NCBI GenBank assembly: GCA_944392295.1
Contig: CALXWE010000004.1
Span: forward strand, 45,819-109,818
Source: an uncultured Alphaproteobacteria bacterium
GTDB lineage: Bacteria; Pseudomonadota; Alphaproteobacteria; RF32; CAG-239
DNA length: 64,000 nucleotides
Reading direction: 5' to 3'
Positions within the stretch are counted from its first letter, which is position 1. Every line of letters begins with the position of its first letter. Of this stretch, positions 7,018 to 62,880 are shown piece after piece. Under the pieces are notes generated by a model. That model was not told the DNA's origin. It saw nothing but the letters and a program-made list of their open reading frames with translations, and searched no databases. A program made the position numbers and the translations under genes.

Positions 7018-7659
7018 TTATTTTGTATTTTTAAAATAAAATTGGAAATAGACTTGCTTTTTATCAGTTAATTCGAACTGTTGTTCACATATGTTATTTA
7101 TTTCGGAAATACTCATATTGGCAAAATCATATTGAGCGTTTACCAGGTTTATGTTTTTTCCTCCACCGGGTTGATTTCTTAAATATATAAAAGTAAATCC
7201 TTTAGGATTTTCTCTGTAAATGGGTTGTAATGCAAGTAGAATATTACGGCAATAAGAAATACCGATATCAATGCTTGGGAAGGTTATTGGAGTTTCGTAT
7301 TGAGGTTTGCCGTATATGGCTAGTACCGTATCGTGATTTAATGGGTGATTGTAAATATATATTGTACTATAAGTACCAAAGGCATCTTTCAGATACTCGT
7401 TTTGAACAGACATACCGTCGGGAATAGCATTTAACTTTTGATATATCGGAATCAAAGAATCATTTGGTTCGGCTGATATTTGATATTGATAGGTATAAAT
7501 CATATTAATTAATGATGAAATTTGCTCAGCTTGCTTATTTAGTTTATATTTCATCATCGCCTTAGAGTAACCGGCGATGGCACCGACGGATAGCACTCCA
7601 ATTATCGCCAGAACGCCGAGCATTTCGACCATCGAGCGTCCAAGTTCATTAAATTTCAT
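7018..7659 (-). CDS. Type IV pilin-like protein (prepilin N-terminal methylation domain, variable Cys-containing C-terminal domain), paralog 1 of 6, short leader
   Basis: MKFNELG|RSMVEMLGVLAIIGVLSVGAIAGYSKAM is a class III signal peptide. A short basic leader ends in Gly, Glu sits at +5 and a ~21 aa hydrophobic helix (AIIGVL) follows. A GGAGAT RBS lies 5 nt upstream. Confidence 0.7.
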   Translation of the reverse strand: MKFNELGRSMVEMLGVLAIIGVLSVGAIAGYSKAMMKYKLNKQAEQISSLINMIYTYQYQISAEPNDSLIPIYQKLNAIPDGMSVQNEYLKDAFGTYSTIYIYNHPLNHDTVLAIYGKPQYETPITFPSIDIGISYCRNILLALQPIYRENPKGFTFIYLRNQPGGGKNINLVNAQYDFANMSISEINNICEQQFELTDKKQVYFQFYFKNTK

Positions 7660-7745
7660 CTAAAAACCTCCGATTTTGAGTTGTTAAAGGACTTTAAACG
7701 AAATCATAAACCGTTTTTTTTTTTTGCAACTTTAAAAGGAATAAA
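7660..7745 (-). promoter_or_regulatory. Conserved pilin promoter/5' leader module, copy 1 (T12 tract at 7714..7725)
   Basis: A ~75 bp block reads on the coding strand TTTAAAGTTGCA-(A)12-CGGTTTATGATTTCGTTTAAAGTCCTTTAACAACTCAAAATCGGAGGTTTTTAGATG. It is near-identical upstream of all six pilin-like genes and shows TTGCAA / TATGAT-like hexamers and an RBS. Confidence 0.55.
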
Positions 7746-7777
7746 GTTGATGTTTTATTTATAATATTGTTGTTAAA

Positions 7778-8407
7778 CTATTTCCAAGTAGCATAAAATA
7801 CGCATCCGCTTGATTCTTTTAAGCAACTATTACAGAGAGTATCAAAGTCTTCTAGAGTTAGACTTCTGATACATCTTTTGTTTTTAGATGTATCACAATA
7901 AGCGTCACCATGAAGAGTGTTTGATGAATATTCCGTATCTCCGTCTTCTGATTGACTTTGGATTTGTGAATAAGCGTTATACAATATTCCTGAATGTTCT
8001 TTGTATACATTAAGTAAGTTGCGGCATATTTCTAAACCGTTATTATCTGAACTAAATCGGTAGGCTAAACCGTAAACTGTTGGGTAGGCAAATACCCAAA
8101 TATCATTTTTAAAAATATCATTTAAATAGGTTGAGTTGCGGCGAGAGATTCCATCTGGGAGCATATTTAATTTATAAAGAGTTTCAGCAAAGTGCATGGC
8201 GGCGCCGTTGGTTGATGTATTAATTAACTTATGGCTTATTTCAAAAGCATTGATAAATAACATATTCATGCTTTCTGCTTGCTTATTTAGTTTATATTTC
8301 ATCATCGCCTTAGAGTAACCGGAGATGGCACCCACCGACAGTACGCCTATAATAGCCAAGACGCCGAGCATTTCGACCATCGAGCGTCCAAGTTCATTAA
8401 ATTTCAT
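7778..8407 (-). CDS. Type IV pilin-like protein, paralog 2 of 6, short leader
   Basis: The MKFNELGRSMVEMLGVLAIIGVLSVGAISGYSKAMMKYKLNKQAE N-terminus matches paralog 1. The C-terminal domain is divergent and carries LCNSC / Cys-rich motifs. Confidence 0.7.
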   Translation of the reverse strand: MKFNELGRSMVEMLGVLAIIGVLSVGAISGYSKAMMKYKLNKQAESMNMLFINAFEISHKLINTSTNGAAMHFAETLYKLNMLPDGISRRNSTYLNDIFKNDIWVFAYPTVYGLAYRFSSDNNGLEICRNLLNVYKEHSGILYNAYSQIQSQSEDGDTEYSSNTLHGDAYCDTSKNKRCIRSLTLEDFDTLCNSCLKESSGCVFYATWK

Positions 8408-8478
8408 CTAAAACCTCCGATTTTGAGTTGTTAACGGGCTTTAAACGAAATCATAAACCGTTTTTTTTTTTTGCAACT
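8408..8478 (-). promoter_or_regulatory. Conserved pilin promoter/5' leader module, copy 2 (T12 tract at 8461..8472)
   Basis: Same conserved block as 7660..7745. Confidence 0.55.
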
Positions 8479-8494
8479 TTAAAGATTCGGGCGA

Positions 8495-9250
8495 CTAATT
8501 TTTGTAGATAACGATTTCTTTATTGGAATTCATTTTGCCTAAAGCTTGGTCTAGCTCTTGGTTTGCCGGAAACATTCCGCTTTGATGAAAAATTTGCAAC
8601 TCGTTGACGTATTGACTGTAACGATTGCGATATTTGGGCAAATCGGGATTTATACCTCCTGTCTGCGGTGCCGTAATATCGGCAGTTTGAACACTATTAT
8701 TTTCCGGATTAATACCGCCCGTATTGTTAATATTGTCGGCAAAAGTCGGTACCGTAACGGGCTGTGGATTATCATCTTCAATAAAATCGGTGGTGATGAC
8801 GGCTTGATTGTTATTGTTTGCGTCTTGGCTCGTTGCCGTTTGTGTAATTTCAGATTTGGCAGGTGGTGTATTTTGAACAACATTGCCGGTTGCTTGATTA
8901 GCGTGGCTGCCGGTGTTAGAATCCGCGCCGGTCGCGGCTGCGGTATTTGTAGTTTCGGCTTTGGCGTATACCGGGATATATCTGCCGTCAACGGCTATGT
9001 AATGAGAAATTTTGGGCTTTTTTACTCTTATCGGGGCTTGTCTGGTATTTTGCCCGTTATTGCCGGTGTTATTGTTTCGGCTCCTTATTGCCGAAGGGAG
9101 CTTGGGCTGGGGAAGGGCTATAGGCGGAAGTTTTTCGTAACGGGGTTGTAGCTCGTTTTTCGGAATAAAAAAGGCTTCTTGCGCCGCAACAAACCTGCCG
9201 GCAGCTATTATACCGGTCGTTAAAAGTAAAAAAAATACCGTCTTTTTCAT
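8495..9250 (-). CDS. Secreted low-complexity (N/T/Q/P-rich) protein, hypothetical
   Basis: Signal peptide MKKTVFFLLLTTGIIAAGRFVAAQ. The central region is compositionally biased. It lies immediately upstream (in transcription order) of the pilin tandem. Confidence 0.45.
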   Translation of the reverse strand: MKKTVFFLLLTTGIIAAGRFVAAQEAFFIPKNELQPRYEKLPPIALPQPKLPSAIRSRNNNTGNNGQNTRQAPIRVKKPKISHYIAVDGRYIPVYAKAETTNTAAATGADSNTGSHANQATGNVVQNTPPAKSEITQTATSQDANNNNQAVITTDFIEDDNPQPVTVPTFADNINNTGGINPENNSVQTADITAPQTGGINPDLPKYRNRYSQYVNELQIFHQSGMFPANQELDQALGKMNSNKEIVIYKN

Positions 9251-16656: not shown

Positions 16657-16700
16657 AAAAGCGGTACTTTTACAAAAGCACCGCTTTTATTTTATTGGGT
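16657..16700. terminator. Bidirectional terminator between convergent genes
   Basis: aaaagcggtac-N10-gcaccgctttt with T-runs on both sides. Confidence 0.5.
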
Positions 16701-19700
16701 TATAGAATTGTTATTTTCAAGTTTCTTTTGGCGATACATACGTATCAACTTGGTTATGTAATTTTGTATCATTGAAACCATATATTTTTGATTATAGCTG
16801 TTGTGAATTTCATCATAATTATCTGTAGATGAAATGTTTTGCGTTTCTTTACCCTTTACAAAAAGTTTGATAAGAGCTTTTTTAAGTGCGGTCGGATTGG
16901 TGTTTTCTTGGGCTAAAAATACTTCTAAACCTTTTCCGGCAACACTGCGTGTTAGGGAATTGGGGTTACGGGACTTAAAGGTATCCGACATACCGCGAAT
17001 AACTTCCTTATCATTTTTACCGGAAAGCAATATCGCTCTTACAGCATTATATCCGGCTAAATCTTCGTTAGTCTTTGAGTTGTTAATGCTTTGTGCTATC
17101 TTAATAATGGCGGCAATTTTGGCGGCGTATTGCGATTTATAATTACCGCTTTTATATAACATCATATAGGTTGTTATCATATCGGGAGTTTCGCCTTCGC
17201 CCTTTTCGGCTACCGTAAAGTTAAAGGTATCGTATAAAAGACGTCCGAATTCATATCGGTCCTCAGGTGAAAATGGATGATTGTTTTCTTGTCTGTTAAT
17301 GGTATAGATAACCTCTTTCATGATGCCTTTTAAAATGGCCGTATCAACATTTTGACGTTTGATTAATTCTCCGATTGTCGGCATAAATTCCTTTGGTATA
17401 TCCGGACTTAAGGAATTTTTATCAAGTTCCTGAATGCGATCGGCCATTATTTTGAGTAATGGTATTTTAACTTCCGATGCTTGTTGAACTTTAATTATTT
17501 CTTTCTTGATTACGCTGCCTATTTTGGCGGGTAAATACTTAAAGGAATCGGCGTACATATTAAACAACATACTGCCTAAAAATTCTCTGTCCGAATACGA
17601 TAATAAATTTTGTTCTGAATAAAATAAACCGAGTTGTTTTATTCCTTCATCAACAAAACCGGTTATGATGCTTTCATCAATTGAGGTATTGCCGTCAGCT
17701 AAGGCGTTGTTTATACAATCTACCAAATCAATGATTTGAAAATCTTTATAAAAATCAATAACAGAGAGCAGTGTCTTTAGGCAATCTGATAAGTAGGATG
17801 AAGTCGTTTGTTTTAGCCGATAAGCATCTTCAATTTTGTTTCCGAGAGTAACGCTGAACTGACGGAATAAATTTCCTTCAAAATTACTGCTTACCATTTT
17901 CTCAAAAGTTTGGTATAAAAATTTTCCAAGCAATTTTTTATCTTGTGCCGAGGCATATACGGTGGCTCGTGCTCCACTATCAAAAATACAAATGGTATTA
18001 GTTTCCGGATTGAGGCGTATCTGTCGGCCAAATTCAGTATTGCTGACATTTCCCCCGCTTATTAATTTGCTTAATTTAAGACTGTTATAAATTTTATTTA
18101 CTACCTGTCTGTAACGTAAATTTTTAATTGTATCTAATGTGTTGCCGTAACTTCTTTCCATTTCTGCCCAAGTTTTACCGTAAGCTGTCCAATTGGCTAC
18201 TCTTAGCTTAATCTTATAACCATCAATTTCAAATTCACGGTGATTGTAGGTCTTTTGGGCCGCTTTTAGCTGCTCGTAGCCTACACTTAAATCGGTCTCA
18301 ATTATAACATCATGTCGGGTTTGAGTAATTATTTGTAGAAGACTATTGATGTTTTCGGATAACAGATTGTCGTGGAATAAGTCGTACAAAGTGTCTTCAA
18401 ATGCCTTAAATTCTTTTTCGGCAGAAGTTTTTGTAGCAGCATAAACGATTTTTACAACTTTGTCGCTTTCAAATGGTGATTTGTTTTTTTCAAGTGCACC
18501 TTTTTCTAAAGTTATAAAATACGGATTGGAGCTTAGGCTGCGTCCGAGCCAGATGTTTGAACTGTAATCAAGTTTGTTATCGTCATCTTGTGTATTATAA
18601 AAGTCAAGCCATTCAAACAATTCCCAACGAGCTGGGTGCTGCTCCTTAAACTTTATTTTTTGTAACTCTTTACGTATATATTTAGGCAGAGCTAAACAAA
18701 CTGTTGCCGATTGTGCTATACGTGTAGCAACCGGACCGGCATTTTCTAAAAAGATGCGGGTGCACTCTGCTAAATTTTTATTAGCATCGATGGTTGCCGG
18801 TGTCTCAAGGGCAGCGCTCATGGCTGCAGCCAGATATAATGTGCGCTCTGAATTTTTATGAGCTTTGATGTAGCTGTGTAAAATCTTACATACAATTTGT
18901 TTCTTAACATCATCAACAGCGGGTAACAAATGTTTACATATGCAGTTGAAAATGTGCTCCCAATCATTGGCCGAAATCCCTAAATTAGAAGCTTGGATAA
19001 CTTCACCTAAAATGACGGCACGGGCCTCTATTGGATATCCCCAAAATTCATGGTAAAGCATATCAAGAGTTTGCGGAGATATTCTTTCTTTACGAGAGCG
19101 TTGACTTTCTTGCAGTGCAGAATTTAAATGCTGGCTGTAGGCTTCACAATCCTTGTTACTACCGAATGTTAAAAGAAAGTCTATCAGATTATCGGCTTCC
19201 GTGCGGGATAAGGATATTAATGATTTAATTGTAGCAAATCCGGCAATTTGCAGCCTACATCCGTCATCTTCTTCGCTTATTTCCATAAAACTTGCAGGGT
19301 AGGGTTTTAACAGAAAAGCAAGTTTTTTTTGTGCTACAAATCTTTCTGCCAACAAGTGTGATAATTCAAGTCGGTCAGCCTGATTAACATTTTCATCAAT
19401 GTCTATGCCGAACATATTTTGTTCATAACTGTAGCCGTGCAGTTTTTGAGCATATACTTTTACTTTGTTGTAAAGGGATTCTGATTTGTCATCAATTTGT
19501 GAACCGCAGGAGCTAAATACCGATTGTACCCATAGCTGTTGATAACGCCTTCTTAAATCGGGGTCTAAAATACGGTGCTGCTTATTGATGAAAATATCGT
19601 AATAACTGTTTTTTAATTCAGGCTCGCGAATACTTTCTATCTCGGGAATAAAGTTTTCCAAAAATTGATGTTGTAAAACATAATCGTCGGCAAATCCGTT

Positions 19701-22670
19701 GACTTCAACCAATTTTTGATAGGCCTTAATTTTACCTATTAAATCGACATTGAATGCCGGGTTGTCTTGGATTAGCATATTTTTGAGTTGGTTGTCGCCA
19801 ATGTAGTCTAGTGTTTTGGCTATCTCAACCGAGGCAGCAAGAGCTTTTTGCGGGTTGTTTTCTTTTTTAATTTGTTTGATTATGTAGCTCAAACTTTCCG
19901 TATCATCAATAAGACCTTGCTCGCGAAGGCTGCGGTAGACCTTAACCATGCCCAAAATGTCGGCAGGATAATTTTCTCTTTTGATTAAAAACGGTTTGAG
20001 CTTGGCTCTTTGCAAATCCAGCAATTCATAAAGCGGATACTTTGATAATATCTCAAGCGGAAACAGATGCTTGTCATCGGTGATGATGTATAGCAGCATA
20101 CCGGTTCGGATATTGGCTGCCAAATCATCGGAAGATTGTAAAAGTTTTTCATCTTTAAAGTCGGCAAAATCAACCGGAAAATCTAGAGCCTTTCGAATGT
20201 GTTCGTAAAAGACCGGTTGATATTTTTGGAAATTAATATTCTCTAATGTTAAGTGTTTGTCTGCAGCCATTTCGTTAAGAGCAAAAACGGCAAGACGTTT
20301 TAATTCGGGAATGACAATGTTGTTTTTGCTTAACAGACCTAAATCGAGAAGTTTCTTAACGCCTACTTTTTCAAACAAGGTGTTGTAATATTTAATAAAT
20401 TGGGCTTCGCTGAAAAATTGTACGCTGCGTGGGGATTTAAGCGCATCTTTACAAAATTGCATAAATTCATATTCGATAGGTTGCAATGTGTTAAGCGACC
20501 AACCGTATTCTGCATGTTCAACGTCGTTGCAAACGTGGCTTAAGTAAGCTTCAAAAATTATGTTGTCGTTTTCAAGACTATACTTCGAATTAACAAATGC
20601 TAAAATCTCGGGACCGAGCAGTTTGTTAAATCGCAGCTCGTTAAATTTGCTGTAACCTTCGTAAATTTCCGAGGAAGTTTTGAGCATGTAAAAACTATCT
20701 TCTATAAAATTTTCAACAGGCTGTTTTTGCGGATAGGCAACGCTGGTATTATCTTTGAGTAAGGCATTGGCATAATCAAGGGATGATACTGCTTCTGACT
20801 TTGCTACATATTTGTATGGACCGGTGAGACCTTTAAGATGTAAGAGGTCTTTACTGCTTAAGTTTTTAATTTTTTGCGGATTTTGCGAAGCCGTACGAAT
20901 TATATCGTAGTACTGCTTAATCTCCTTGGCAAGCTGCCGATAAATGGTATCTTCCCTGGTTTGCAGTAAATCTTCAAGTTTGGCTTTATATTCTTTTGGT
21001 GAAAACGAATCGAGGATTTTGCCTTGATTGTCGCAAATATAAAACCAGCTCTTATCGGTAACATCAGCTGAAAATGGGGCTTCGCGGTAATTGCCGCGAT
21101 AGTGTATTATATAGCACCCTTTATATATTTCTTTGGCGGTTAATCCTAGGATTTTTTCATATACGGAAGATCGCAAAGCAATTAAGGGTATGGTCTTACC
21201 TTTATCAGAACCGTTTTGTTCCAGAGGTAATTTAGGAAATCTGTCCAGCTTAAATTTTTTAAACAGATAGCTATCGCTTTTAGGGTAAAATTTTAAATCT
21301 TGCGGTAAAAATGTAGTCGGGTTGTCGGAGCTGAAACAATCTCGGATATTGGAAAATTTTGACCATACACGACGCTGATATGCAGGGTCTTCTTGGTTGT
21401 GAAATACTTTTTCAAATTCTTCCAAAATGTTTCTTCCGGTAGGAAGTTTGCTGATATCAATATCTTCTATGCCGCTTAAAATACATCCGTTATAAATGCT
21501 TAAATAATCGCCGTCGGGAAGCTGGGTTTCTAAATCAAGCAATTTATCCCAGAACAAAACGTTGGGAAAAGTTCCCTCAGCAATGGCCCGCTTTTGATAC
21601 TCTTCAAGCAGATTGTTAAATCGGGAAACAGTTTCAAATGCATCATCAGGTACAATTTTTTGCGGAAAACTTTCTAAAATTGAAATACGATGCTCAAGAG
21701 ATTCCGGCAAAGGCGTATGAAAAATTTCTTGCCAACGTTTTTGACGCAACTCTTCGTGAGCCGGATTATAACTTTTAAATAATTCATAGTCGCTTTGAGA
21801 GACAATTTTACGTGCCATATTGCGTCTTAAGTCGGCGACATAACTTAAAATAACATCTTCAATTTGTACGGCTTGATTATGAGTTAATTCCTTTGAAGGC
21901 GGAATAAATTCTTTTAGAGCAGAAATTAATATATCTTGCTTTTCGATTAAACTAAAGGAATCGTACTTTTTACTTTCTAAAAGTTTACGCAGGCTTGATT
22001 TATAGTAACTTTTGTTTACCGAAGTTTTAAATTTAACCGGAATTTCGGTCGGCTCAAAAGCCGTAATGTCAATATCTTGTTTGTAATAGAAACTTTGTAA
22101 AGATTGAATCTTTAACTGTAAAGCATTAAGCATACTTTCATTATTAGGGTATTGTTTGAAAGCTTTTAAGATTTTTGCAGATAAAGAGTGATATTTTTGT
22201 GAGTTAAGAAAAATATGGGTTATTAAACTTTCGGCCTGGGCAATGTTATATTTGGCCTGAGCTAACATTTTAAGGGCGTTAAAGTCAGAAGAATCTCCTG
22301 CGCTGTAATCGGTGTTTTTGAAATAAGCAGGAATAAGTTTTAGCTCATAACTCATAATGAAGGCTAATTGGTCTTCATTTTGTACAATATTGATTAGACC
22401 TTTGGTTACGGTTAGGACAGGAATAAGGTTTTGCTTGCCGGCTTGATTTTTAATTTGCGGAACAACAAAGGAAATATTAGGTTCACTATCGTCGGTGATG
22501 CAGAAAAATACGGGATTTTGATCAAGATCAAATGAGGTGCCGAAAAGTCGGCGGGCTATACCCTCAAGATAAGAGCATCTTTCTTGTTCTTCTTGCAAAG
22601 TACCATCAATGATTTTAATCTGGTCATACAAATCAGAAGGTAAATTTCTTTTAATCTGTAAAACATCCAT
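16692..22670 (-). CDS. Giant hypothetical protein (1992 aa), no recognisable domains; candidate secreted effector
   Basis: A single uninterrupted 5979-nt ORF. It has no signal peptide or TM segments and no P-loop or other motifs I can place. It is K/N/E/L-rich and mostly helical. Confidence 0.6.
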   Translation of the reverse strand: MDVLQIKRNLPSDLYDQIKIIDGTLQEEQERCSYLEGIARRLFGTSFDLDQNPVFFCITDDSEPNISFVVPQIKNQAGKQNLIPVLTVTKGLINIVQNEDQLAFIMSYELKLIPAYFKNTDYSAGDSSDFNALKMLAQAKYNIAQAESLITHIFLNSQKYHSLSAKILKAFKQYPNNESMLNALQLKIQSLQSFYYKQDIDITAFEPTEIPVKFKTSVNKSYYKSSLRKLLESKKYDSFSLIEKQDILISALKEFIPPSKELTHNQAVQIEDVILSYVADLRRNMARKIVSQSDYELFKSYNPAHEELRQKRWQEIFHTPLPESLEHRISILESFPQKIVPDDAFETVSRFNNLLEEYQKRAIAEGTFPNVLFWDKLLDLETQLPDGDYLSIYNGCILSGIEDIDISKLPTGRNILEEFEKVFHNQEDPAYQRRVWSKFSNIRDCFSSDNPTTFLPQDLKFYPKSDSYLFKKFKLDRFPKLPLEQNGSDKGKTIPLIALRSSVYEKILGLTAKEIYKGCYIIHYRGNYREAPFSADVTDKSWFYICDNQGKILDSFSPKEYKAKLEDLLQTREDTIYRQLAKEIKQYYDIIRTASQNPQKIKNLSSKDLLHLKGLTGPYKYVAKSEAVSSLDYANALLKDNTSVAYPQKQPVENFIEDSFYMLKTSSEIYEGYSKFNELRFNKLLGPEILAFVNSKYSLENDNIIFEAYLSHVCNDVEHAEYGWSLNTLQPIEYEFMQFCKDALKSPRSVQFFSEAQFIKYYNTLFEKVGVKKLLDLGLLSKNNIVIPELKRLAVFALNEMAADKHLTLENINFQKYQPVFYEHIRKALDFPVDFADFKDEKLLQSSDDLAANIRTGMLLYIITDDKHLFPLEILSKYPLYELLDLQRAKLKPFLIKRENYPADILGMVKVYRSLREQGLIDDTESLSYIIKQIKKENNPQKALAASVEIAKTLDYIGDNQLKNMLIQDNPAFNVDLIGKIKAYQKLVEVNGFADDYVLQHQFLENFIPEIESIREPELKNSYYDIFINKQHRILDPDLRRRYQQLWVQSVFSSCGSQIDDKSESLYNKVKVYAQKLHGYSYEQNMFGIDIDENVNQADRLELSHLLAERFVAQKKLAFLLKPYPASFMEISEEDDGCRLQIAGFATIKSLISLSRTEADNLIDFLLTFGSNKDCEAYSQHLNSALQESQRSRKERISPQTLDMLYHEFWGYPIEARAVILGEVIQASNLGISANDWEHIFNCICKHLLPAVDDVKKQIVCKILHSYIKAHKNSERTLYLAAAMSAALETPATIDANKNLAECTRIFLENAGPVATRIAQSATVCLALPKYIRKELQKIKFKEQHPARWELFEWLDFYNTQDDDNKLDYSSNIWLGRSLSSNPYFITLEKGALEKNKSPFESDKVVKIVYAATKTSAEKEFKAFEDTLYDLFHDNLLSENINSLLQIITQTRHDVIIETDLSVGYEQLKAAQKTYNHREFEIDGYKIKLRVANWTAYGKTWAEMERSYGNTLDTIKNLRYRQVVNKIYNSLKLSKLISGGNVSNTEFGRQIRLNPETNTICIFDSGARATVYASAQDKKLLGKFLYQTFEKMVSSNFEGNLFRQFSVTLGNKIEDAYRLKQTTSSYLSDCLKTLLSVIDFYKDFQIIDLVDCINNALADGNTSIDESIITGFVDEGIKQLGLFYSEQNLLSYSDREFLGSMLFNMYADSFKYLPAKIGSVIKKEIIKVQQASEVKIPLLKIMADRIQELDKNSLSPDIPKEFMPTIGELIKRQNVDTAILKGIMKEVIYTINRQENNHPFSPEDRYEFGRLLYDTFNFTVAEKGEGETPDMITTYMMLYKSGNYKSQYAAKIAAIIKIAQSINNSKTNEDLAGYNAVRAILLSGKNDKEVIRGMSDTFKSRNPNSLTRSVAGKGLEVFLAQENTNPTALKKALIKLFVKGKETQNISSTDNYDEIHNSYNQKYMVSMIQNYITKLIRMYRQKKLENNNSITQ

Positions 22671-25774: not shown

Positions 25775-26443
25775 TTACTTAAATACATAATATACAACAC
25801 ATATGTTACCCTTTAAGCATTGATTACATAAATTCCAGATAGTGCTAATATCTGCTGAATAAATACAATAGTCCTGGTTACTACACGTTTTACCATAGAG
25901 CCACTGCTGTTGATTTTCGTCGTTACTATCGGTACCGTTAAATCCGATTGCTTGTAATTCATAGGCAAAGCCTTTTGCTAAGTTAAAGCGATTAATACAA
26001 GAATCTATATCGCTGTTATAAAAACGGATGAATGTTTGCTTACTTGTATTGTCTCTGTATATAAGTATTTGATTATTGAAACTATCATAAATATAATCAG
26101 TATTATCTTTAATCATTTCTTGGGGGATTATGTTAAGCTTTTTATAATATGGAAGCATATATGTTACTTGTTCAGATGAATTTGTTTCGTATAATATGTT
26201 TTTGTATTCAATCATTCCGCTTAAAAGCTGGCTAAGTTGTTCGGTCTGTTTGTTAAGTTTATATTTCATCATTGCTTTAGAGTAACCGGCGATGGCGCCG
26301 ACGGACAAAACTCCGATAATTGCCAGCACGCCCAGCATTTCGACCATACTTCTTCCGGCGGAAAGTTTGTATAAGGGCTCATCTAAAGCCGTTTTATGGG
26401 AGCTTATTTTTACGAATTGGCATAAAAATTTATAAAATTTCAT
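25775..26443 (-). CDS. Type IV pilin-like protein, paralog 3 of 6, long leader
   Basis: MKFYKFLCQFVKISSHKTALDEPLYKLSAG|RSMVEMLGVLAIIGVLSVGAIAGYSKAMMKYKLNKQTEQ. The C-terminal domain is divergent with the LCNQC..C motif. Confidence 0.7.
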   Translation of the reverse strand: MKFYKFLCQFVKISSHKTALDEPLYKLSAGRSMVEMLGVLAIIGVLSVGAIAGYSKAMMKYKLNKQTEQLSQLLSGMIEYKNILYETNSSEQVTYMLPYYKKLNIIPQEMIKDNTDYIYDSFNNQILIYRDNTSKQTFIRFYNSDIDSCINRFNLAKGFAYELQAIGFNGTDSNDENQQQWLYGKTCSNQDYCIYSADISTIWNLCNQCLKGNICVVYYVFK

Positions 26444-26520
26444 CTAAAACCTCCGAGTTTTGTTCAATAAAGGACTTTAAACGAAATCATAAACCGTTTT
26501 TTTTTTTTGCAATTTTAAAG
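26444..26520 (-). promoter_or_regulatory. Conserved pilin promoter/5' leader module, copy 3 (T12 tract 26497..26508)
   Basis: Same conserved block. It shares the intergenic region with the divergent gene at 26654. Confidence 0.55.
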
Positions 26521-26653: not shown

Positions 26654-28144
26654 ATGAAAAAGGCTGAGTTGGTAAATTTTTTAGAGGCGGAATATGCCGC
26701 TGCACATCGTTCTCCAAAAACTATAAAGCTGTTGGGGCATTCTTATGTTATCCCTTGCGTGTATTTGACCGAATATCAAGATCCAGAAAAATCTTTTATG
26801 AATGATTTTTTTGAGTTAATGCGTAAAGATTATCTGCATTATAAACGTTGTAATGAAGAACCTCAGTATGTTTGTTTGGCGCTCGGTGATAAAAGTATAA
26901 GACTGGTGGTGCCTTATGCCTTACGCTATAAAAATCATACCCCAAATGAAATTGCCGATAAAATCTTAAAAAGAGCCAGTGATAAATATTGGCGGGCGGT
27001 TAGATTATCATCGGAGATGGCCGAAATTTATCCTGACAGACCGTTCAAAACATTTATTAATTTGGCTAACTTAAAAGAAATGCGTAACGCCTTAAGATTG
27101 CACCGTCTCAAAGAAGCTCGCGATAGAACTGCCTATATTACGAAAAAGGTTGGCACGTTCTTGGCTAAAAATGCTCGTAAAGTTACGAATAATATTAAAC
27201 ATATGGATGTTGACCGCCTTAAGGCCAAAGCTAAAACCTGGGCGGTGGTAGCGGTGCTTGGAGCAACCATTAATGCCGCTGTTTATACTGCTTTCCAAAT
27301 TAAAGATAAATCAGAACAAAAAAAAGAAGTACAAGCTAAAGACCCTTTGGGGCATATCAGAATGTTTTCACGTTGTCATGATGCCATTAAGGTTAGTTTG
27401 GCTTTTGCCGAAAATTTTGCTCCTAAAGCTTTTAAAGACGGTGTAGGTGTACCGACTATCGGTTACGATTGTACTTATTATTTGGATGAAAACGGTAAGG
27501 GAAGCCGTGCAACGTCGCCGGTGAAAATAGGAGATAATATTACTAAAGAAGAAGCCAATGTTCAAAAAGAGCGCTACTTACAGTTTGAAATCTTAAATCA
27601 AATTCAAGAAAATGTTAAAGTCCCGTTAGATGAAGCAACAATGATTGCTACATGTAATTTTGCTTATGTGTTGGGCTCAACGAACTTTAGGAATTCAGAG
27701 TATCTAAAAGCCTTAAATGAGGGTAAAAAAGGTGAAGAGCTCGTTAAATATTTAACCGGATATCGTCAGCAAAAGGGCTTGCTACCAAGATTTTATTTTA
27801 TGGGTGCTTTGCTTAACGGTAAATTAAAAACTTCCGATTTTTTGAATTTAACGGCAGAAGGTTGTTATAATCTTAGTACCAAAGATGTGTGCGTCTATAA
27901 AGGAAATAGAATAAAACTTGATGGTGAAGGGTTTGCCGAGTTTGATTATGATAAGTTAGAGCAAAATCTTGTAAAATCTAACAGAGCACGACGCAGTAAA
28001 GCTTGCGGAAATAAAAAGTGTCCGCCGGTTAAAGATATTTTACCGCAATCGGTAATTGACGGTGTTTTACAAATGGAAAAATCATCAAATTATACGGGCT
28101 TATTGTCGGAAAGTTTGTTGAATCTAAATGCCAATTCGAGATAA
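26654..28144 (+). CDS. Membrane-anchored protein with C-terminal T4/GH24-type lysozyme-like domain
   Basis: One TM segment (TWAVVAVLGATINAAVYTAF). The C-terminal region has the T4-lysozyme catalytic spacing E-x8-D-x5-T (AENFAPKAFKDGVGVPTIGYD) and downstream FAYVLGSTNF, which is GH24-like. Confidence 0.55.
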   Translation: MKKAELVNFLEAEYAAAHRSPKTIKLLGHSYVIPCVYLTEYQDPEKSFMNDFFELMRKDYLHYKRCNEEPQYVCLALGDKSIRLVVPYALRYKNHTPNEIADKILKRASDKYWRAVRLSSEMAEIYPDRPFKTFINLANLKEMRNALRLHRLKEARDRTAYITKKVGTFLAKNARKVTNNIKHMDVDRLKAKAKTWAVVAVLGATINAAVYTAFQIKDKSEQKKEVQAKDPLGHIRMFSRCHDAIKVSLAFAENFAPKAFKDGVGVPTIGYDCTYYLDENGKGSRATSPVKIGDNITKEEANVQKERYLQFEILNQIQENVKVPLDEATMIATCNFAYVLGSTNFRNSEYLKALNEGKKGEELVKYLTGYRQQKGLLPRFYFMGALLNGKLKTSDFLNLTAEGCYNLSTKDVCVYKGNRIKLDGEGFAEFDYDKLEQNLVKSNRARRSKACGNKKCPPVKDILPQSVIDGVLQMEKSSNYTGLLSESLLNLNANSR

Positions 28145-36277: not shown

Positions 36278-37069
36278 TTATTTTGTAAAATCAAACTGTA
36301 TCCACTGGTAAAAGTAAAGACTACCGTTATTTACAAACTCATTGTAACTTTTTTGGCAGGCTTCATAAAAATCGTGGGTTGTCATATTAGGTAGGCAAGG
36401 GGATGTAGATTTACAATTTTGCCGATAATAGTAATAATATGGTCGCTCAATCCAAACGGTTGTCAAAGATGAAGTTTCTGGTTGTATGGATTTTAACATC
36501 TGAAACGTATTAACACAAGCATCTACGGAGCTTTGTGCTTTGTTATAATGAATAATAAATGCAAGATTATTTCCATTTTTTCCTACATATAATTCTATGC
36601 TTATACCAAGAGAGGTTTTGACAACGTTTTTGCTTATATAAGATACACCATCAGGTAATGATTTTAATGTATTCAGTAACCCGGCGACATCTGTTCCCGA
36701 AGATGTTTTTTCGTAATATTTTTGTGAAATAGTCGATGTAACAGCGGTCAGCAGTTCCGAAATTTGTTGGGTGTGTTTATTTAATTTATATTTTGTCATC
36801 GCCTTAGAGTAGCCGGATATAGCGCCAACCGATAGAATGCCAATGATAGCAAGAACACCAAGCATTTCGACCATACTTCTTCCGGCGGAAAGTTTGTATA
36901 AGTGCTCATCTAAAGCCGTTTTACGGTACTGAAAAAAATTCATGTACTTTTTGTGTACACTAAAATTTTTTTCGCCCCTAGAAACGACTTTATCTAAACT
37001 CTTCTCCAAACTTTCGGGAAAAAAGGGGCTGATTTTTACGAATTGGCATAAAAATTGATAAAATTTCAT
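36278..37069 (-). CDS. Type IV pilin-like protein, paralog 4 of 6, long leader carrying a 102-bp in-frame insertion
   Basis: MKFYQFLCQFVKIS-[34 aa insert]-RKTALDEHLYKLSAG|RSMVEMLGVLAIIGILSVGAISGYSKAM. The C-terminal domain is divergent. Confidence 0.65.
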   Translation of the reverse strand: MKFYQFLCQFVKISPFFPESLEKSLDKVVSRGEKNFSVHKKYMNFFQYRKTALDEHLYKLSAGRSMVEMLGVLAIIGILSVGAISGYSKAMTKYKLNKHTQQISELLTAVTSTISQKYYEKTSSGTDVAGLLNTLKSLPDGVSYISKNVVKTSLGISIELYVGKNGNNLAFIIHYNKAQSSVDACVNTFQMLKSIQPETSSLTTVWIERPYYYYYRQNCKSTSPCLPNMTTHDFYEACQKSYNEFVNNGSLYFYQWIQFDFTK

Positions 37070-37150
37070 CTAAAATCTCCGAGTTTTATTCACTAAAGGA
37101 CTTTAAACGAAATCATAAACCGTTTTTTTTTTTTGCAACTTTAAAAGGAA
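37070..37150 (-). promoter_or_regulatory. Conserved pilin promoter/5' leader module, copy 4 (T12 tract 37123..37134)
   Basis: Same conserved block. Confidence 0.55.
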
Positions 37151-37256: not shown

Positions 37257-38447
37257 TTACTTCAAGATTTTAGAAACTACACCGGCACCTACTGTGTGAC
37301 CGCCTTCACGAATAGCAAAACGTAAACCTTCGTTCATAGCAATCGGGTGAATCAATTTTGCTGTCATTGTGATGTTATCACCAGGCATTACCATCTCGGT
37401 TCCTTCAGGTAATTCAATCGAACCGGTTACGTCCGTTGTACGGAAGTAGAATTGAGGACGGTAGTTAGAGAAGAACGGAGTATGACGTCCACCTTCTTCT
37501 TTAGTCAAAATGTAGCATTCACAGGTAAATTCTGTGTGAGGTGTAATGGAGCCAGGAGCTGCCAATACTTGACCACGTTCTACTTCTTCTCTCTTGGTGC
37601 CACGCAACAATACACCAATGTTATCGCCGGCTTCACCTTCATCCAACAACTTACGGAACATTTCAATACCGGTACATGTTGTCTTTTGGGTCGGCTTAAT
37701 ACCTACGATTTCAATTTCATCGCCTACTTTGATTACACCGCGTTCTACACGTCCGGTTACCACTGTACCACGACCGGAAATTGAGAATACGTCTTCAATC
37801 GGCATCAAGAACGGTTTGTCCTTCGGACGATCAGGTTGCGGAATGTAGTTGTCTACGGCGTTCATCAATTCAATGATAGAATCGTGTCCAATCTTCGGAT
37901 CGCCGTTTTCCAATACTGCCAAGGCACTTCCTTTAATAATCGGAATTTCATCTCCAGGGAAACCGTAAGAGGTTAACAAATCTCTGATTTCCATCTCTAC
38001 CAATTCCAACAATTCAGGATCGTCTACTTGGTCTACTTTGTTCATGTATACAACAATCGCCGGTACACCTACTTGACGAGCAAGCAAAATGTGCTCACGA
38101 GTTTGCGGCATCGGTCCATCTGCTGCACTTACTACCAAAATTGCACCATCCATTTGGGCTGCACCGGTAATCATGTTCTTTACATAGTCTGCGTGGCCGG
38201 GGCAGTCTACGTGTGCGTAGTGACGCTTTGCTGTTTCATATTCTACGTGTGAGGTCGAAATGGTAATACCACGAGCCTTCTCTTCAGGTGCTTTATCAAT
38301 TTGATCATATGCAGTGAAGTTGGCTCCGCCTTGCTCTGCCAATACTTTGGTAATGGCGGCGGTTAATGTTGTTTTACCATGGTCTACGTGACCGATAGTT
38401 CCTATGTTGCAGTGCGGCTTGCTCCGCTCAAATTTCTCTTTTGCCAT
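37257..38447 (-). CDS. tuf: Elongation factor Tu
   Basis: The long ORF is trimmed to [33 protein letters not shown] at 38447. Full EF-Tu of 396 aa. Confidence 0.97.
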
Positions 38448-38501
38448 TGTTGCTCTACCTTTAAAAAAAAGATTAAATTGACTTCCGATATTTAAGGATT
38501 T

Positions 38502-38575
38502 TGGAGCGGGTGAGGGGAATCGAACCCCCGTAATAAGCTTGGAAGGCTTCTGCTCTACCATTGAGCTACACCCGC
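38502..38575 (-). tRNA. tRNA-Gly (anticodon UCC)
   Basis: Reverse complement reads GCGGGTGTAGCTCAATGGTAGAGCAGAAGCCTTCCAAGCTTATTACGGGGGTTCGATTCCCCTCACCCGCTCCA. This is a cloverleaf with a CTTCCAA loop and an encoded CCA. Confidence 0.9.
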
Positions 38576-38605
38576 AAACTCTTAATATATCAGAAGCGAT
38601 TAAAC

Positions 38606-38691
38606 TGGTGGAGGGGGATGGATTCGAACCATCGTAGACGAAAGTCGACGGATTTACAGTCCGTTGCATTTGACCGCTCTGCCACCCCTCC
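38606..38691 (-). tRNA. tRNA-Tyr (anticodon GUA)
   Basis: Reverse complement reads GGAGGGGTGGCAGAGCGGTCAAATGCAACGGACTGTAAATCCGTCGACTTTCGTCTACGATGGTTCGAATCCATCCCCCTCCACCA. It has a long variable arm and a GTA anticodon. The Tyr-Gly pair is arranged ahead of tuf as in tufB loci. Confidence 0.9.
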
Positions 38692-41741: not shown

Positions 41742-41920
41742 AAAAATTAAAGAGTTATGATAATTTATTATACCTATGTATTTATATCACATCTTTTATT
41801 ATGCGCAAGTTTTAAATGTACATTAGATATAGATTCTGTGTTTGTTTTTTATTGTTGATTTTCTTGACTTTGCAACGCAAAGTCAGTACCTTGCCGGATG
41901 TTATTAAAAGGAGAATCGTG

Positions 41921-43072
41921 ATGAAAAAATTGTGGCTGGCTTTGATGCTTATTATATGCTCTGCCAATTCGGCTTGGGCTATGCAAATCTTTGTTAAAAC
42001 TTTAACCGGTAAACATATTACTCTGGAAGTTGAACCTACCGATACAATTGGAGACATAAAACTTAAAATTCAAGATAAAGAGGGCATTGCCCCAAGTGAA
42101 CAAACCTTGGTCTTTGCCGGAAAAGAACTTGAAGATGCTAATACTTTACAAGATTACAGCATTTTCAAAGATTCAACTCTGCATTTAGTCTCAAACAATA
42201 AGGTTACCAATTTATCATTAAATGTTAATCCGGCTCATATTGTAAGGCAAAATGCCGATATGCTGCTTAATAACGTTGCAGCTCGTACAAGCGGCGGGAT
42301 TAGCTCCTATAAAAGTGCCGAACAAATAAATCTGCAGGATAATACTTCTCTTTGGGTCAGCACTCTTGCCGGACATTCACAATATTTAAATACCGATACT
42401 TATGGTCTTTCGTTGGCCTTTGAAAAGAAGCTGGCAGATTTTAAATATGGTTTAGGTTATGCTTATTTAAAAAATGATATTGATGATGCTTTAAACACCG
42501 ATGTACAAAATCATTCCGGCTTTGTATATGCCGAATATAAGCCTTCAGCTTGGTATACCAATGCCATAGTTATGTATTCTCATTCGCGGTTTGAAGAAAA
42601 TGATTTTAATAAATATAACGTTCAAGCTATATCTTCTCAGTTGATGAGCGGATATGATTTTTATTATGTTACGCCGGAAATGGGAATTAGATATATCCAT
42701 ATTTGGAATAACCGCTATACCAATGCTCAAAATATGCAAATGACTAAAAATAATGAAGATATTTTAACGGGGGTTATCGGTATAAAGCTGGCAAAAGAGA
42801 TAACCTTAAATGCCGATTATAGTTTTGTTCCGCAAGCCAAGGTCTCGGCATTATATGATTTTTCACGAGCCAGCGGCGTTGCCAATGCTTATGTAAACGG
42901 CAAATATGCTGTTGTTCATAGTGATGTAATGGCTAAGTATGCCACGGAAATTAATGTCGGGCTTAAACTGGTTAAACAAAATTCGTGGGAGACTTATTTA
43001 GGCTATTATGCACAGTTGCGGAATAATTATAATATTCATTCCGTAATTGTTAATTTTGCCTATGACTTTTAA
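41921..43072 (+). CDS. Signal peptide + eukaryote-like ubiquitin domain + C-terminal outer-membrane beta-barrel (autotransporter-like) fusion protein
   Basis: An AAAGGAGA RBS precedes [20 protein letters not shown]|[70 protein letters not shown]. The ubiquitin-like part is ~74% identical over 70 aa to eukaryotic ubiquitin. K48 and K63 are retained and the LRLRGG tail is missing. The ~290 aa C-terminus has alternating hydrophobic beta strands and ends in VNFAYDF, the terminal-Phe signature of outer-membrane proteins. Confidence 0.75.
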
Positions 43073-61272: not shown

Positions 61273-61983
61273 TTACTTTATAGGTAAAAAGATGTAAAAA
61301 TCACAACTGACTTCCGCTTCACAGCTATTACATAAAGTATCGATATCGGTTAAAGAAGCATTACGAAGACAGTTATTGGGATTAGTACATATAGAGTCTC
61401 CGTATAAAGCCGTGGTACCGTAACCATCTTCGTTTTTTTGCCGCATTTGAATAGAGTTTATGTTAGCGGCATTTTCTTTGGCGGCGGTAACTATATTGCG
61501 GCAGATTTGTGCCGAATAGGGGCTTATTTTGTTATTTACCCTATTCATGTTTATATAAATATTATATTCAACATGTTTGAATACAGCTTCAAAGTAATAT
61601 GAGGTGGAAATACGGTTATTAAATATATCGTAGATACGGTTGGTAGCTTCATCGTAATGCATACCCTCAGGTATCAGATTAAGTTGTTTGAAAATGATTG
61701 TGCCTATGGCCTGTTGTTGGAAGGAGCGATTTAATTGCGGACCCAATTGAATAGCATTATTAATCAGCGTGTTCATTGATTCTGCGTGTTTATTAAGTTT
61801 ATATTTGAACATGGCTTTGGAGTAGCCGGCAATAGCACCGACAGAAAGTACACCAATAATGGCTAAAACTCCCAACATTTCAACCATACTTCTTCCGGCG
61901 GAAAGTTTGTATAAGGGCTCATCTAAAGCCGTTTTACGGGAATTAAGTTTTACAAAATGGCATAAAAATTGATAAAATTTCAT
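61273..61983 (-). CDS. Type IV pilin-like protein, paralog 5 of 6, long leader
   Basis: MKFYQFLCHFVKLNSRKTALDEPLYKLSAG|RSMVEMLGVLAIIGVLSVGAIAGYSKAM. The C-terminus has LCNSCEAEVSC. Confidence 0.7.
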   Translation of the reverse strand: MKFYQFLCHFVKLNSRKTALDEPLYKLSAGRSMVEMLGVLAIIGVLSVGAIAGYSKAMFKYKLNKHAESMNTLINNAIQLGPQLNRSFQQQAIGTIIFKQLNLIPEGMHYDEATNRIYDIFNNRISTSYYFEAVFKHVEYNIYINMNRVNNKISPYSAQICRNIVTAAKENAANINSIQMRQKNEDGYGTTALYGDSICTNPNNCLRNASLTDIDTLCNSCEAEVSCDFYIFLPIK

Positions 61984-62075
61984 CTAAAATCTCCGAGTTT
62001 TATTCACTAAAGGACTTTAAACGAAATCATAAACCGTTTTTTTTTTTTGCAACTTTAAAAGGAGCTGTGCCCACA
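61984..62075 (-). promoter_or_regulatory. Conserved pilin promoter/5' leader module, copy 5 (T12 tract 62037..62048)
   Basis: Same block. It is extended by aaaaggagctgtgccca, which is shared only with copy 6. Confidence 0.55.
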
Positions 62076-62109: not shown

Positions 62110-62787
62110 CTATAAACGCCAGTTGATGTCAATGTTACAGGTTACTTTATCCATGCAGCTTTTGCACATACTGTATATTTCATCAAGAGTAATATCCGTA
62201 ATGCATTTTTGCGATGAATTGCAAGTCTTGCCGTAAAAATAAAACTCATATTGATGATCGTTGTTTCCGGATGAAGAACCGATGAATAAGTGTGAAAAAT
62301 CTTGTGAATGAGCCTTAGCAACATTTAACAGATTTTGGCAGGTTGTGAAGTTATCGGAAGTAGGTTCAAGATAATATACAATATGAGTGAGTAAAAAAGT
62401 CGGACCGCCGTTGTTACTGATTAATACTTTATTTCCCATAGCGTCATATAAAAACCCGTTTTCGACTTTCATACCATCTGGAATTAGGTTCATTTTTTGA
62501 AACAATGTTATCAAATTAGTCCACTGGTTATATTTTAATTGCGGAGTGTAGGTGGTCATAACATTAAATAGCCAGGAGATTTGCTCGGCTTGTTTGTTAA
62601 GCTTATATTTAGTCATCGCCTTAGAGTAGCCGGAAATGGCACCGACAGATAATACGCCTATGATTGCAAGAACGCCGAGCATTTCGACCATACTTCTTCC
62701 GGCGGAAAGTTTGTATAAGGGCTTATCTAAAGCTGTTTTACGGGGTCTTATTTTTACGAATTGGCATAAAAATTGGTAAAATTTCAT
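62110..62787 (-). CDS. Type IV pilin-like protein, paralog 6 of 6, long leader
   Basis: MKFYQFLCQFVKIRPRKTALDKPLYKLSAG|RSMVEMLGVLAIIGVLSVGAISGYSKAM. The C-terminus has MCKSCMDKVTC. Confidence 0.7.
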   Translation of the reverse strand: MKFYQFLCQFVKIRPRKTALDKPLYKLSAGRSMVEMLGVLAIIGVLSVGAISGYSKAMTKYKLNKQAEQISWLFNVMTTYTPQLKYNQWTNLITLFQKMNLIPDGMKVENGFLYDAMGNKVLISNNGGPTFLLTHIVYYLEPTSDNFTTCQNLLNVAKAHSQDFSHLFIGSSSGNNDHQYEFYFYGKTCNSSQKCITDITLDEIYSMCKSCMDKVTCNIDINWRL

Positions 62788-62880
62788 CTAAAATCTCCAA
62801 AGTTTGATTCACTAAAGGACTTTAAACGAAATCATAAACCGTTTTTTTTTTTGCAACTTTAAAAGGAGCTGTGCCCAAAA
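62788..62880 (-). promoter_or_regulatory. Conserved pilin promoter/5' leader module, copy 6 (T11 tract 62842..62852)
   Basis: Same block with one fewer T in the homopolymer. Confidence 0.55.

Follow-up and report, generated by a model that had tools for sequence, protein, structure and literature searches.

Bacteria adhere, aggregate, and take up DNA by means of type IV pili, to which phages also attach, and to our knowledge little has been learned about how gut commensals vary them. Several described systems bear on the locus reported here. The vlp genes of Mycoplasma hyorhinis and the opc and porA genes of Neisseria meningitidis undergo phase variation through tracts in their promoters. Expanded families of pilin-like proteins occur in bacteria of the Planctomycetes, Verrucomicrobia, and Chlamydiae (PVC), such as DUF1559/H-X9-DG in Planctomycetes and the Verru_Chthon cassette proteins. 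In Rickettsia, palindromic elements (RPE) of about 100–150 nt reportedly lie in frame within protein-coding genes and are translated.

Here, we analyzed a 64,000-nt stretch (the window) of contig CALXWE010000004.1 from an uncultured Alphaproteobacteria bacterium (assembly GCA_944392295.1), which contains six related genes (c1–c6) for pilin-like proteins. Each copy is a self-contained unit, composed of an upstream module (TTGC-A(n)-...-TA(T/G)(G/A)AT), a ribosome-binding site (RBS), an ATG, a leader of variable length, a mature N-terminus R-S-M-V-E(+5), and a globular domain of about 150 residues. On balance, we consider it probable that the copies belong to a large family of type IVb-like prepilins, each with its own promoter, that are cut between Gly and Arg (G↓R) by a non-methylating A24 peptidase, share a common helix, differ in the exposed domain, and are possibly modulated one by one through a poly-A tract. 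Cleavage, fibre assembly, and the biological role are what we infer from the features described below.

Predicted prepilins and their proposed processing

The six genes are located as follows:

c1, 7018..7659, minus strand: predicted prepilin gene, 213 residues; 7-residue leader MKFNELG; mature start (Arg) at 7638; only the two invariant Cys
c2, 7778..8407, minus strand: predicted prepilin gene, 209 residues; 7-residue leader; mature start at 8386; six Cys
c3, 25775..26443, minus strand: predicted prepilin gene, 222 residues; 30-residue leader, mostly the right arm of a palindromic element; mature start at 26353
c4, 36278..37069, minus strand: predicted prepilin gene, 263 residues; 63-residue leader; mature start at 36880
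c5, 61273..61983, minus strand: predicted prepilin gene, 236 residues; 30-residue leader; mature start at 61893
c6, 62110..62787, minus strand: predicted prepilin gene, 225 residues; 30-residue leader; mature start at 62697

An earlier note on this DNA had described these six minus-strand open reading frames (ORFs) with a common RBS and start, and both points were borne out: the ORF listing contained all six, complete and at exactly those coordinates, and in the DNA alignment of the 5ʹ regions every ORF began with ATGAAATTT preceded by a GGAG-type RBS. The genes stood as dispersed single units or tandem pairs amid housekeeping genes (secA, lepA, tuf, ppdK, and rnhB), with no pilus-biogenesis operon around them. 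The six proteins were 31–42% identical overall, and the invariant columns of their alignment clustered in G-R-S-M-V-E-M-L-G-V-L-A-I-I-G...K-Y-K-L-N-K, together with two Cys. The signal block, G↓RSMVEMLGVLAIIGVLSVGAI(A/S)GYSKAM.KYKLNK, had been called identical in all copies; it is near-invariant, with I for V at one position of c4, whereas the leaders before it differ in length. The back-translated MVEMLGVLAIIG block occurred exactly six times in the window. The broader Cys framework that had been proposed did not hold up, as only two Cys are invariant family-wide and their number is two in c1, four in c4, and six in the other window copies. In mature numbering, the invariant pair falls at about residues 121 and 185; the mature proteins of the window have 192–206 residues.

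To describe the processing site, 196 copies were collected from the window, 78 genome loci, and 80 metagenome loci, and residues were counted over 187 of them with the anchor set downstream of the site. Gly-1 and Ser+2 were found in 187/187 copies, and Arg+1 and Glu+5 in 186/187. Every one of the 187 leaders ended in Gly, and the sequence upstream of that Gly varied freely. The residue at +1 was thus Arg, not the Phe or Met of pilins or the Leu or Val of type IVb pilins, in all but one copy. The Gly-Arg-Ser (G-R-S) codons comprised about 20 different triplet sets, with Arg encoded by CGN and AGA and Ser by TCN and AGY, in short- and long-leader copies alike. As G-R-S is kept through synonymous codon switches, selection acts at the protein level and these residues are translated, and the claim that translation begins upstream of the internal Met of MVEM therefore stands. 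The opposite reading, that these are ordinary signal-anchored membrane proteins translated from that internal Met, deserves almost no credence. In its favor, many long-leader copies encode G-R-S as GGAAGAAGT, similar to a weak Shine–Dalgarno signal right in front of that ATG, but the codon evidence contradicts this start and it was rejected. Moreover, in the short-leader copies ATGAAATTT follows a strong GGAGG RBS at 7–8 nt and comes right after a stop codon, which fixes the start there in c1 and c2, and the long leaders are in frame from the same RBS-linked ATG. Separately, one copy (L062 261, in BRZ_RN bin68) has ATA in place of ATG, with module and ORF otherwise intact, and is a candidate pseudogene or off-state copy.

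Glu+5 is followed by a hydrophobic α1N segment of about 20 residues, and the α1 helix is conserved to about residue 42. AlphaFold2 models of c2 (predicted local distance difference test score, pLDDT, 85.1; predicted template modeling score, pTM, 0.76) and of c1, the most aberrant copy (83.6 and 0.78), showed a 50-residue N-terminal helix followed by an α/β domain. The best structural matches of the predicted fold were all type IVb pilins (CofA/TcpA-like) and extended over the whole globular domain; the prediction agrees with the pilin fold, in which a long N-terminal helix packs on an antiparallel sheet and a disulfide bounds the C-terminal region, and the mature length is that of type IVb pilins (about 180–200 residues). 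A disulfide occupies positions in TcpA similar to those of the two invariant Cys. The sole match of an 83-member family profile among Protein Data Bank (PDB) sequences was Geopilin PilA-N (E = 0.05), in whose alignment G-1, E+5, and AIIG(I/V)L were in register and MLGVLAIIGVLSVGAI paired with LLIVVAIIGILAAIAI of Geopilin. Judged by their sequence, with a class III site and Glu+5, the six ORFs are prepilin genes, as had been suggested, and their C-terminal globular domains, for which the earlier note had proposed structure prediction, are predicted to have a type IVb pilin fold.

A prepilin peptidase was found in the clade, adjoining family members. In a motif scan of the fetched loci, a 4.7-kb metagenome contig (L159) carried an A24-like ORF at its end, together with a family member and groESL, and the ORF fragment matched Pfam Peptidase_A24 with E = 1.4e-16. 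In L168 (GCA_965350415.1), the peptidase gene was flanked by two family members, one located 120 bp upstream and divergent, and the other just past groEL. At the other loci the peptidase was a stand-alone gene among housekeeping genes, usually near groES/groEL. Homologues of this peptidase fell into at least 197 clusters, and several carried the name 'MAG: prepilin peptidase [Alphaproteobacteria bacterium]' (MAG, metagenome-assembled genome). The protein of about 237 residues matched PF01478 alone and had neither a DiS_P_DiS domain nor CxxC motifs; it is probably non-methylating, and the lack of a methyltransferase domain agrees with a +1 residue that is Arg and not Phe or Met. Two further 'A24-like' matches were set aside, as they carried a GSGNIGATN motif and were PlsY-like by motif alone.

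Several results weigh against the pilin reading. The Pfam N_methyl model (PF07963), one of the checks proposed in the earlier note, gave 13.7–14.5 bits against a cut-off of 21.2, with only profile positions 8–27 matching, and NCBIfam TIGR02532 gave about 10 bits against 16.3. Foldseek returned no significant match in the PDB, and the two AlphaFold2 models were built on one alignment and hence are not independent. We know of no characterized pilin with Arg at +1. The peptidase was located in the contigs of relatives (L159 and L168), and is widespread in related MAGs, rather than in the window's own genome: sampling of the peptidase clusters for the gene of the window species returned only bioreactor, ruminant, and other unidentified metagenome samples, and no NCBI accession tied a peptidase to the MAG of the family member MDY4885815.1. 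No assembly ATPase, platform protein, or secretin of a type IV pilus or type II secretion system was present in the window, as already noted earlier; in the precomputed Pfam annotation, the window and both flanks contained housekeeping genes only. Likewise, no T2SSE, T2SSF, secretin, or GspL was found within 10 kb of the 196 copies. This search, in which 4,144 ORF segments from 1.66 Mb were screened for a Walker-A motif and queried in phmmer with the E. coli proteins GspD, E, F, G, L, and O, yielded peptidases and one VirB11-like ATPase only. The low scores of the N_methyl, TIGR02532, and GspG/GspH models arise because the GFTLIE part of the profiles is replaced here by GRSMVE. As for the machinery, any that exists is unlinked to family members.

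The VirB11-like ATPase (T2SSE family) was rejected as a pilus motor, as it adjoins VirB10/TrbI and belongs to a type IV secretion system. At L008 2812-12153 (also in L011 and L056), it stands beside two giant proteins of β-flower repeats (1,431 and 1,370 residues), the larger of which also bears a TrbI/VirB10 domain. The locus, which converges with a family copy, has the look of an atypical type IV secretion system.

NCBI labels family members either 'type II secretion system protein' (MDY4885815.1) or 'hypothetical', and the first name, together with weak sub-threshold matches to GspG and GspH models, would suit type II secretion pseudopilins (GspG-K). We rejected this identity as very improbable: the scores were at most 16 bits against cut-offs of 80–89, no gsp genes (GspD/E/F/L homologues) lay near the copies, each genome holds tens of copies, and the mature proteins are of about 200 residues with type IVb major pilins as their best structural matches.

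The absence of machinery near the copies also keeps a non-filament reading alive, in which the class III signal is cut by the peptidase but the products do not polymerize into a pilus and serve as membrane-anchored, periplasmic, or surface proteins. Possible parallels are the substrates of the archaeal 'bindosome', DUF1559 of Planctomycetes, and the Verru_Chthon cassette of Verrucomicrobia. Consistent with such proteins, the peptidase is a lone gene beside groES/groEL outside any pilus operon, NCBIfam gave weak sub-threshold matches to Verru_Chthon cassette protein D, and dozens of paralogues per genome are typical of these PVC families. On the other hand, Glu+5 is invariant and α1 near-invariant to residue 42 across thousands of paralogues, as packing in a fibre core demands, the likeness to major type IVb pilins extends over the whole globular domain, and the absence of machinery applies to gene neighborhoods rather than whole genomes. 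We regard the non-filament reading as unlikely. In the preferred pilin reading, the precursor would insert into the inner membrane and be cleaved after Gly-1 by the stand-alone A24 prepilin peptidase, which lacks an N-methyltransferase domain; with the α1 helix in common, all paralogues could enter a single assembly system and be packed in one fibre core, yet present different surfaces.

Family size, divergence, and palindromic leaders

A word-indexed search gave at least 7,995 clusters at 90% identity among the matches listed, none with a Pfam domain. In an exhaustive profile search of 50%-identity representatives, 5,592 proteins matched at E ≤ 1e-3 and 3,947 at E ≤ 1e-10. At least 563 relatives were confirmed among the GTDB species representatives and at least 505 in metagenomes. 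All 78 fetched genome loci came from gut or faecal 'Alphaproteobacteria bacterium' MAGs, with sources including human samples and roe deer colon; one bin among them bore the label Lachnospiraceae, which is presumably mistaken. The 'endosymbiont-like' nature that had been ascribed to the genome was not supported, since the lineage consists of gut MAGs and is described as free-living. Single MAGs carried at least 11–17 copies within the top 80 genome loci, and many copies lay at contig ends, as expected because the repeated 5ʹ module breaks assemblies. A literature search on the motif, on RF32 pili, and on pilin promoter-tract families found no relevant paper on the family. It is thus a large, so far unannotated, paralogous family in uncultured gut Alphaproteobacteria, and it may be the main variable surface structure of these widespread bacteria. 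The earlier note had overlooked its sheer size, the poly-A tract of 11–12 nt inside the module, and the palindromic in-frame insertions that create the long leaders.

With regard to orientation, the copies were co-oriented in 19 of 25 multi-copy loci. GC skew was positive on the plus strand of the window in all but three of thirty-two 2-kb windows; as all six copies are on the minus strand, the genes would sit on the lagging strand, head-on to replication.

The shared DNA at the 5ʹ end measured 211 nt between c1 and c2 and 273–294 nt among c3, c5, and c6, with the comparisons to c4 split by a 99-nt insert, and exact shared tracts of 33–106 nt lay within it. Blastn between the copies detected no similarity beyond these first 211–294 nt, and the C-terminal halves are unrelated in their DNA. 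Between the window and strain L080, which differs by 1.4%, the numbers of synonymous and nonsynonymous codon differences were 6/1 for c1 and 13/2 for c2, compared with 35/5 for secA; other neighboring genes were similar to c1 and c2. These two copies are therefore stable, selected genes under purifying selection, and the 'hypervariable' character is ancient divergence between paralogues, not ongoing mutation.

Considering the common 5ʹ end, antigenic variation of the Neisseria type was weighed, in which one expressed pilin locus recombines with donor cassettes. The shared 211–294 nt and their exact tracts would offer a substrate for gene conversion, as the earlier note had pointed out, and exchange at the 5ʹ end does occur, since the same mature protein carries different leaders in different strains. 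However, the coding block itself was only 51% identical at third codon positions, giving no sign of recent gene conversion or mosaicism; recent conversion of this block was rejected, and the mosaic tracts for which an alignment had been suggested were not indicated. Furthermore, every copy has the module, RBS, ATG, and full ORF, the variable parts contain no conserved DNA islands, and the orthologues are stable under purifying selection. Cassettes like pilS were therefore rejected, in agreement with the earlier note, and we find the Neisseria-type explanation scarcely tenable.

The leaders range from 5 (MRENG) to 95 residues, both shorter and longer than the usual 15–30 residues of type IVb pilins. 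Their common start is the RBS-linked ATG that follows the A tract by about 50 nt, and their last residue is always Gly. In 44 long leaders, no in-frame stop occurred in 2,225 codons, compared with 148 and 173 stops in the other two frames. The count is circular in part, since the furthest in-frame ATG had served to define each leader, but that ATG is the promoter-proximal one. Leader length varied around constant mature proteins: one 90%-identity cluster held the same mature protein with a 6- or a 47-residue leader, and orthologous pairs also differed. In sequences such as MKFNELGRS-FFRK...ATFSG↓RSMVEM, nested insertions lie right after G-R-S and each recreates G-R-S at its 3ʹ end. The insertion ends are inverted repeats (TCTTTCTTCCG...CGGAAGAAGT). 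The complete element of the window is:

36876..37025, minus strand: complete palindromic element of about 150 nt in the leader-coding region of c4, translated in frame; its right arm is the leader sequence of c3, c5, and c6

The extra 99 nt of c4 are an inverted copy of a 70-nt segment found in c3, c5, and c6, and the two together form the palindrome. Its left arm aligned with the reverse complement of the right arm with a score of 53 (shuffles: mean 17.9, maximum 32), and the RNA fold of the element had −72.5 kcal/mol (z = −4.78), with 0 of 200 shuffles as stable. The single-arm 5ʹ region of the c3 type showed no unusual RNA structure (z = +0.72). Within the window, the arm sequence was present only in the four long-leader copies, and thus has not spread through unrelated genes there. 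Placed at the cleavage site, in-frame palindromic insertions would give rise to the long leaders, and we propose that they are tolerated because the leader is removed. Conversely, the accumulation of insertions in the leader only is indirect evidence that it is removed. The leaders offer a clean natural example of mobile palindromes tolerated in a protein part that is later discarded.

The upstream module and its poly-A tract

Each copy is preceded by a module at the following position:

c1 module, 7692..7735, minus strand: TTAAAGTTGC-A12-CGGTTTATGATTTCGTTTAAAG, A tract at 7714-7725
c2 module, 8439..8482, minus strand: A12 at 8461-8472
c3 module, 26475..26518, minus strand: A12 at 26497-26508
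c4 module, 37101..37144, minus strand: A12 at 37123-37134
c5 module, 62015..62058, minus strand: A12 at 62037-62048, A13 in another sample
c6 module, 62820..62862, minus strand: A11 at 62842-62852, one base fewer than in the other five; A11 also in sample BRZ_IK

The invariant 5ʹ block of the six copies reads TTTAAAGTTGC-A(11/12)-CGGTTTATGATTTCGTTTAAAG, and the RBS and ATGAAATTT follow after about 30 nt. A stretch of 26 nt from the module had six exact occurrences with 0 mismatches and none elsewhere in the 64 kb, where shuffles gave an expectation of 0. The 44-nt core was the same in all six copies save one A/G difference and the tract length. By comparison, the 60 nt further upstream were 34% identical across the copies, and the conserved coding block was 88% identical at codon positions 1 and 2 and 51% at position 3. 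The near-identity of the core beside such a flank and such third positions indicates direct sequence constraint on it. An exact scan of GTDB genomes with a 22-nt module gave no match, so that either the window species is not a representative there or the module is species-specific.

An intact promoter-like module had been ascribed to each copy. The module is indeed present in all six, and its promoter nature is putative, as the hexamers TTGCAA and TATGAT lie 15 nt apart and a standard sigma-70 scan with a 16–18 nt spacer did not call them. Shorter spacers are tolerated by alphaproteobacterial housekeeping promoters, and at the modal tract length a copy may well be 'on'. In the window, the tract would lie between the −35-like and −10-like boxes (TTGC-A11/12-CGGTT-TATGAT). 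Two species groups carry the forms TTGC-A10-CGCGAGC-TAAAAT and TTGC-A12-CGGTT-TA(G/T)(A/G)AT, which keep a distance of 17 nt from TTGC to the −10-like box by different means, A10 plus 7 nt and A12 plus 5 nt.

Among the genome-derived copies, tract lengths were A10 (39 copies), A12 (25), A9 (8), A11 (5), A13 (2), and A14, A20, and A21 (one each). Across 11,041 aligned bp, contig L082 from another sample had 0 mismatches to the window and a single gap, namely the c5 tract (A13 versus A12). Tract length differed in 2 of about 11 orthologous pairs; L090 has A9 and its orthologue L091 has A10. All these cases are few, and homopolymer assembly errors are possible in them. Two copies of BRZ_EQ bin53 (L054 1309 and L055 201) had tracts of A20 and A21 without a TTGC box upstream, and their promoters may be inactivated or differently regulated. 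By analogy with Mycoplasma vlp and meningococcal opc/porA, the length polymorphism suggests a slippage-prone promoter-spacer tract. Slippage would then probably modulate or switch single copies, and a population would display changing pilin subsets as adhesin or antigen variants, or for phage evasion. Both the promoter and the phase variation are read from the DNA and stay putative.

The strong conservation of the modal length within species groups speaks against switching, as does a hexamer geometry that the sigma-70 scan did not call: the tract could have a fixed, structural role, with errors in homopolymer assembly behind the few differences in length. In this alternative, which is compatible with the pilin identity, the A tract serves as a spacer of fixed length, or bends the DNA, within a strong promoter under common regulation, and all copies form one regulon without stochastic switching. 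It would explain why A10 prevails in one species group and A12 in another, including five of the six window copies, why the flank compensates to hold 17 nt, and why conservation is higher in the core than in the coding DNA next to it, as at a regulator binding site. It accounts less well for the 17 of 81 canonical tracts (~21%) in genome-derived copies that were off the group mode by one or two bases, for the two differing orthologous pairs, and for the c5 tract as the sole difference in 11 kb between two samples. We consider a fixed spacer a serious possibility, somewhat short of an even chance.

The fullest form of the switching proposal is tentative, and we put it forward as a conjecture with the chances against it: tens of independently promoted major-pilin genes with mutable poly-A promoters would form a contingency-locus 'wardrobe', in which one type IVb-like fibre is re-surfaced by transcriptional switching rather than recombination, with a G↓R site that is not N-methylated and a leader that acts as a landing pad for site-regenerating palindromic mobile elements. 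If the A tracts do switch single genes, pilus antigenic variation would proceed through many complete genes with mutable promoters and not through an expression site with silent cassettes.

Neighboring genes and comparison with known systems

Some other genes of the window were noted. Directly upstream of c2 on the same strand (8495-9250, minus), a secreted-looking protein of 251 residues rich in Q, N, and T, without a Pfam match, had 11 nonsynonymous and 9 synonymous codon differences between two strains, and is therefore evolving far faster than its neighbors. Divergent from c3 lies a 496-residue protein with a Phage_lysozyme domain (26654-28144, plus; E = 9.5e-15). An ORF of 1,992 residues (16692-22670, minus) had no Pfam match at E ≤ 0.01. 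A 418-residue protein (41816-43072, plus) contains a strong eukaryote-type ubiquitin domain, PF00240 (E = 2.6e-24, residues 58-126), and strain L081 has a 4.8-kb insertion just upstream of this gene, encoding a 1,517-residue protein with a NOV_C domain. The 470-residue EF-Tu ORF (37257-38669, minus) has an N-terminal extension overlapping tRNA-Gly and tRNA-Tyr (38502-38691), so the real tuf start must be internal. An Rfam scan of the window returned tRNAs and signal recognition particle (SRP) RNA only.

Compared with the type IVb major pilins TcpA of Vibrio cholerae, CofA of enterotoxigenic E. coli (ETEC), and PilS of S. Typhi/R64, the family shares a class III leader ending in Gly, Glu+5, a mature length of about 190–205 residues, a non-Phe residue at +1, a long N-terminal helix followed by an α/β domain, and a Cys pair, conserved here at about 121 and 185. 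It differs in that identity is only 10–14%, the +1 residue is Arg, and leaders span 5–95 residues. In addition, its genes are dispersed and monocistronic among housekeeping genes, instead of being the first gene of a tcp/cof/bfp-type operon, tens of paralogues occur per genome, and the peptidase has no methyltransferase domain. The G↓R site and such a peptidase widen the rules for class III signals, and annotation pipelines now miss members or call them hypothetical.

Like vlp of M. hyorhinis and opc/porA of N. meningitidis, this is a multigene surface family with a conserved promoter and signal-peptide region, divergent mature parts, and a homopolymer of varying length between the putative −35 and −10 boxes. 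Unlike in those systems, switching is here only surmised, the modal tract length is strongly conserved, and the products are predicted pilins rather than lipoproteins or outer-membrane proteins. Neisseria pilE/pilS is similar in that many sequences encode pilins whose N-terminal part is constant and whose C-terminal part varies; the copies described here differ in being complete with a module and under purifying selection, with unrelated variable DNA and no evidence of conversion. The PVC pilin-like families likewise number tens to hundreds of paralogues in each genome and have a prepilin-type N-terminus, and are distinguished by their C-terminal domain (type IVb pilin-like here), phylum, and habitat, and by the conserved A-tract module of the present family.

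For the leader insertions, the RPE of Rickettsia are the closest analogy, being palindromic repeats of about 100–150 nt that are in frame and translated in alphaproteobacterial genes. In the window, by contrast, the insertions were seen only in the leader-coding segment of one pilin family, at the cleavage site, where they recreate Gly-Arg-Ser at the 3ʹ end. Taken together, the kind of protein is known, and what is new is an unannotated family, the combination of Arg+1 with a peptidase lacking a methyltransferase domain, tens of dispersed complete genes with an A-tract module, and leaders expanded by palindromes.

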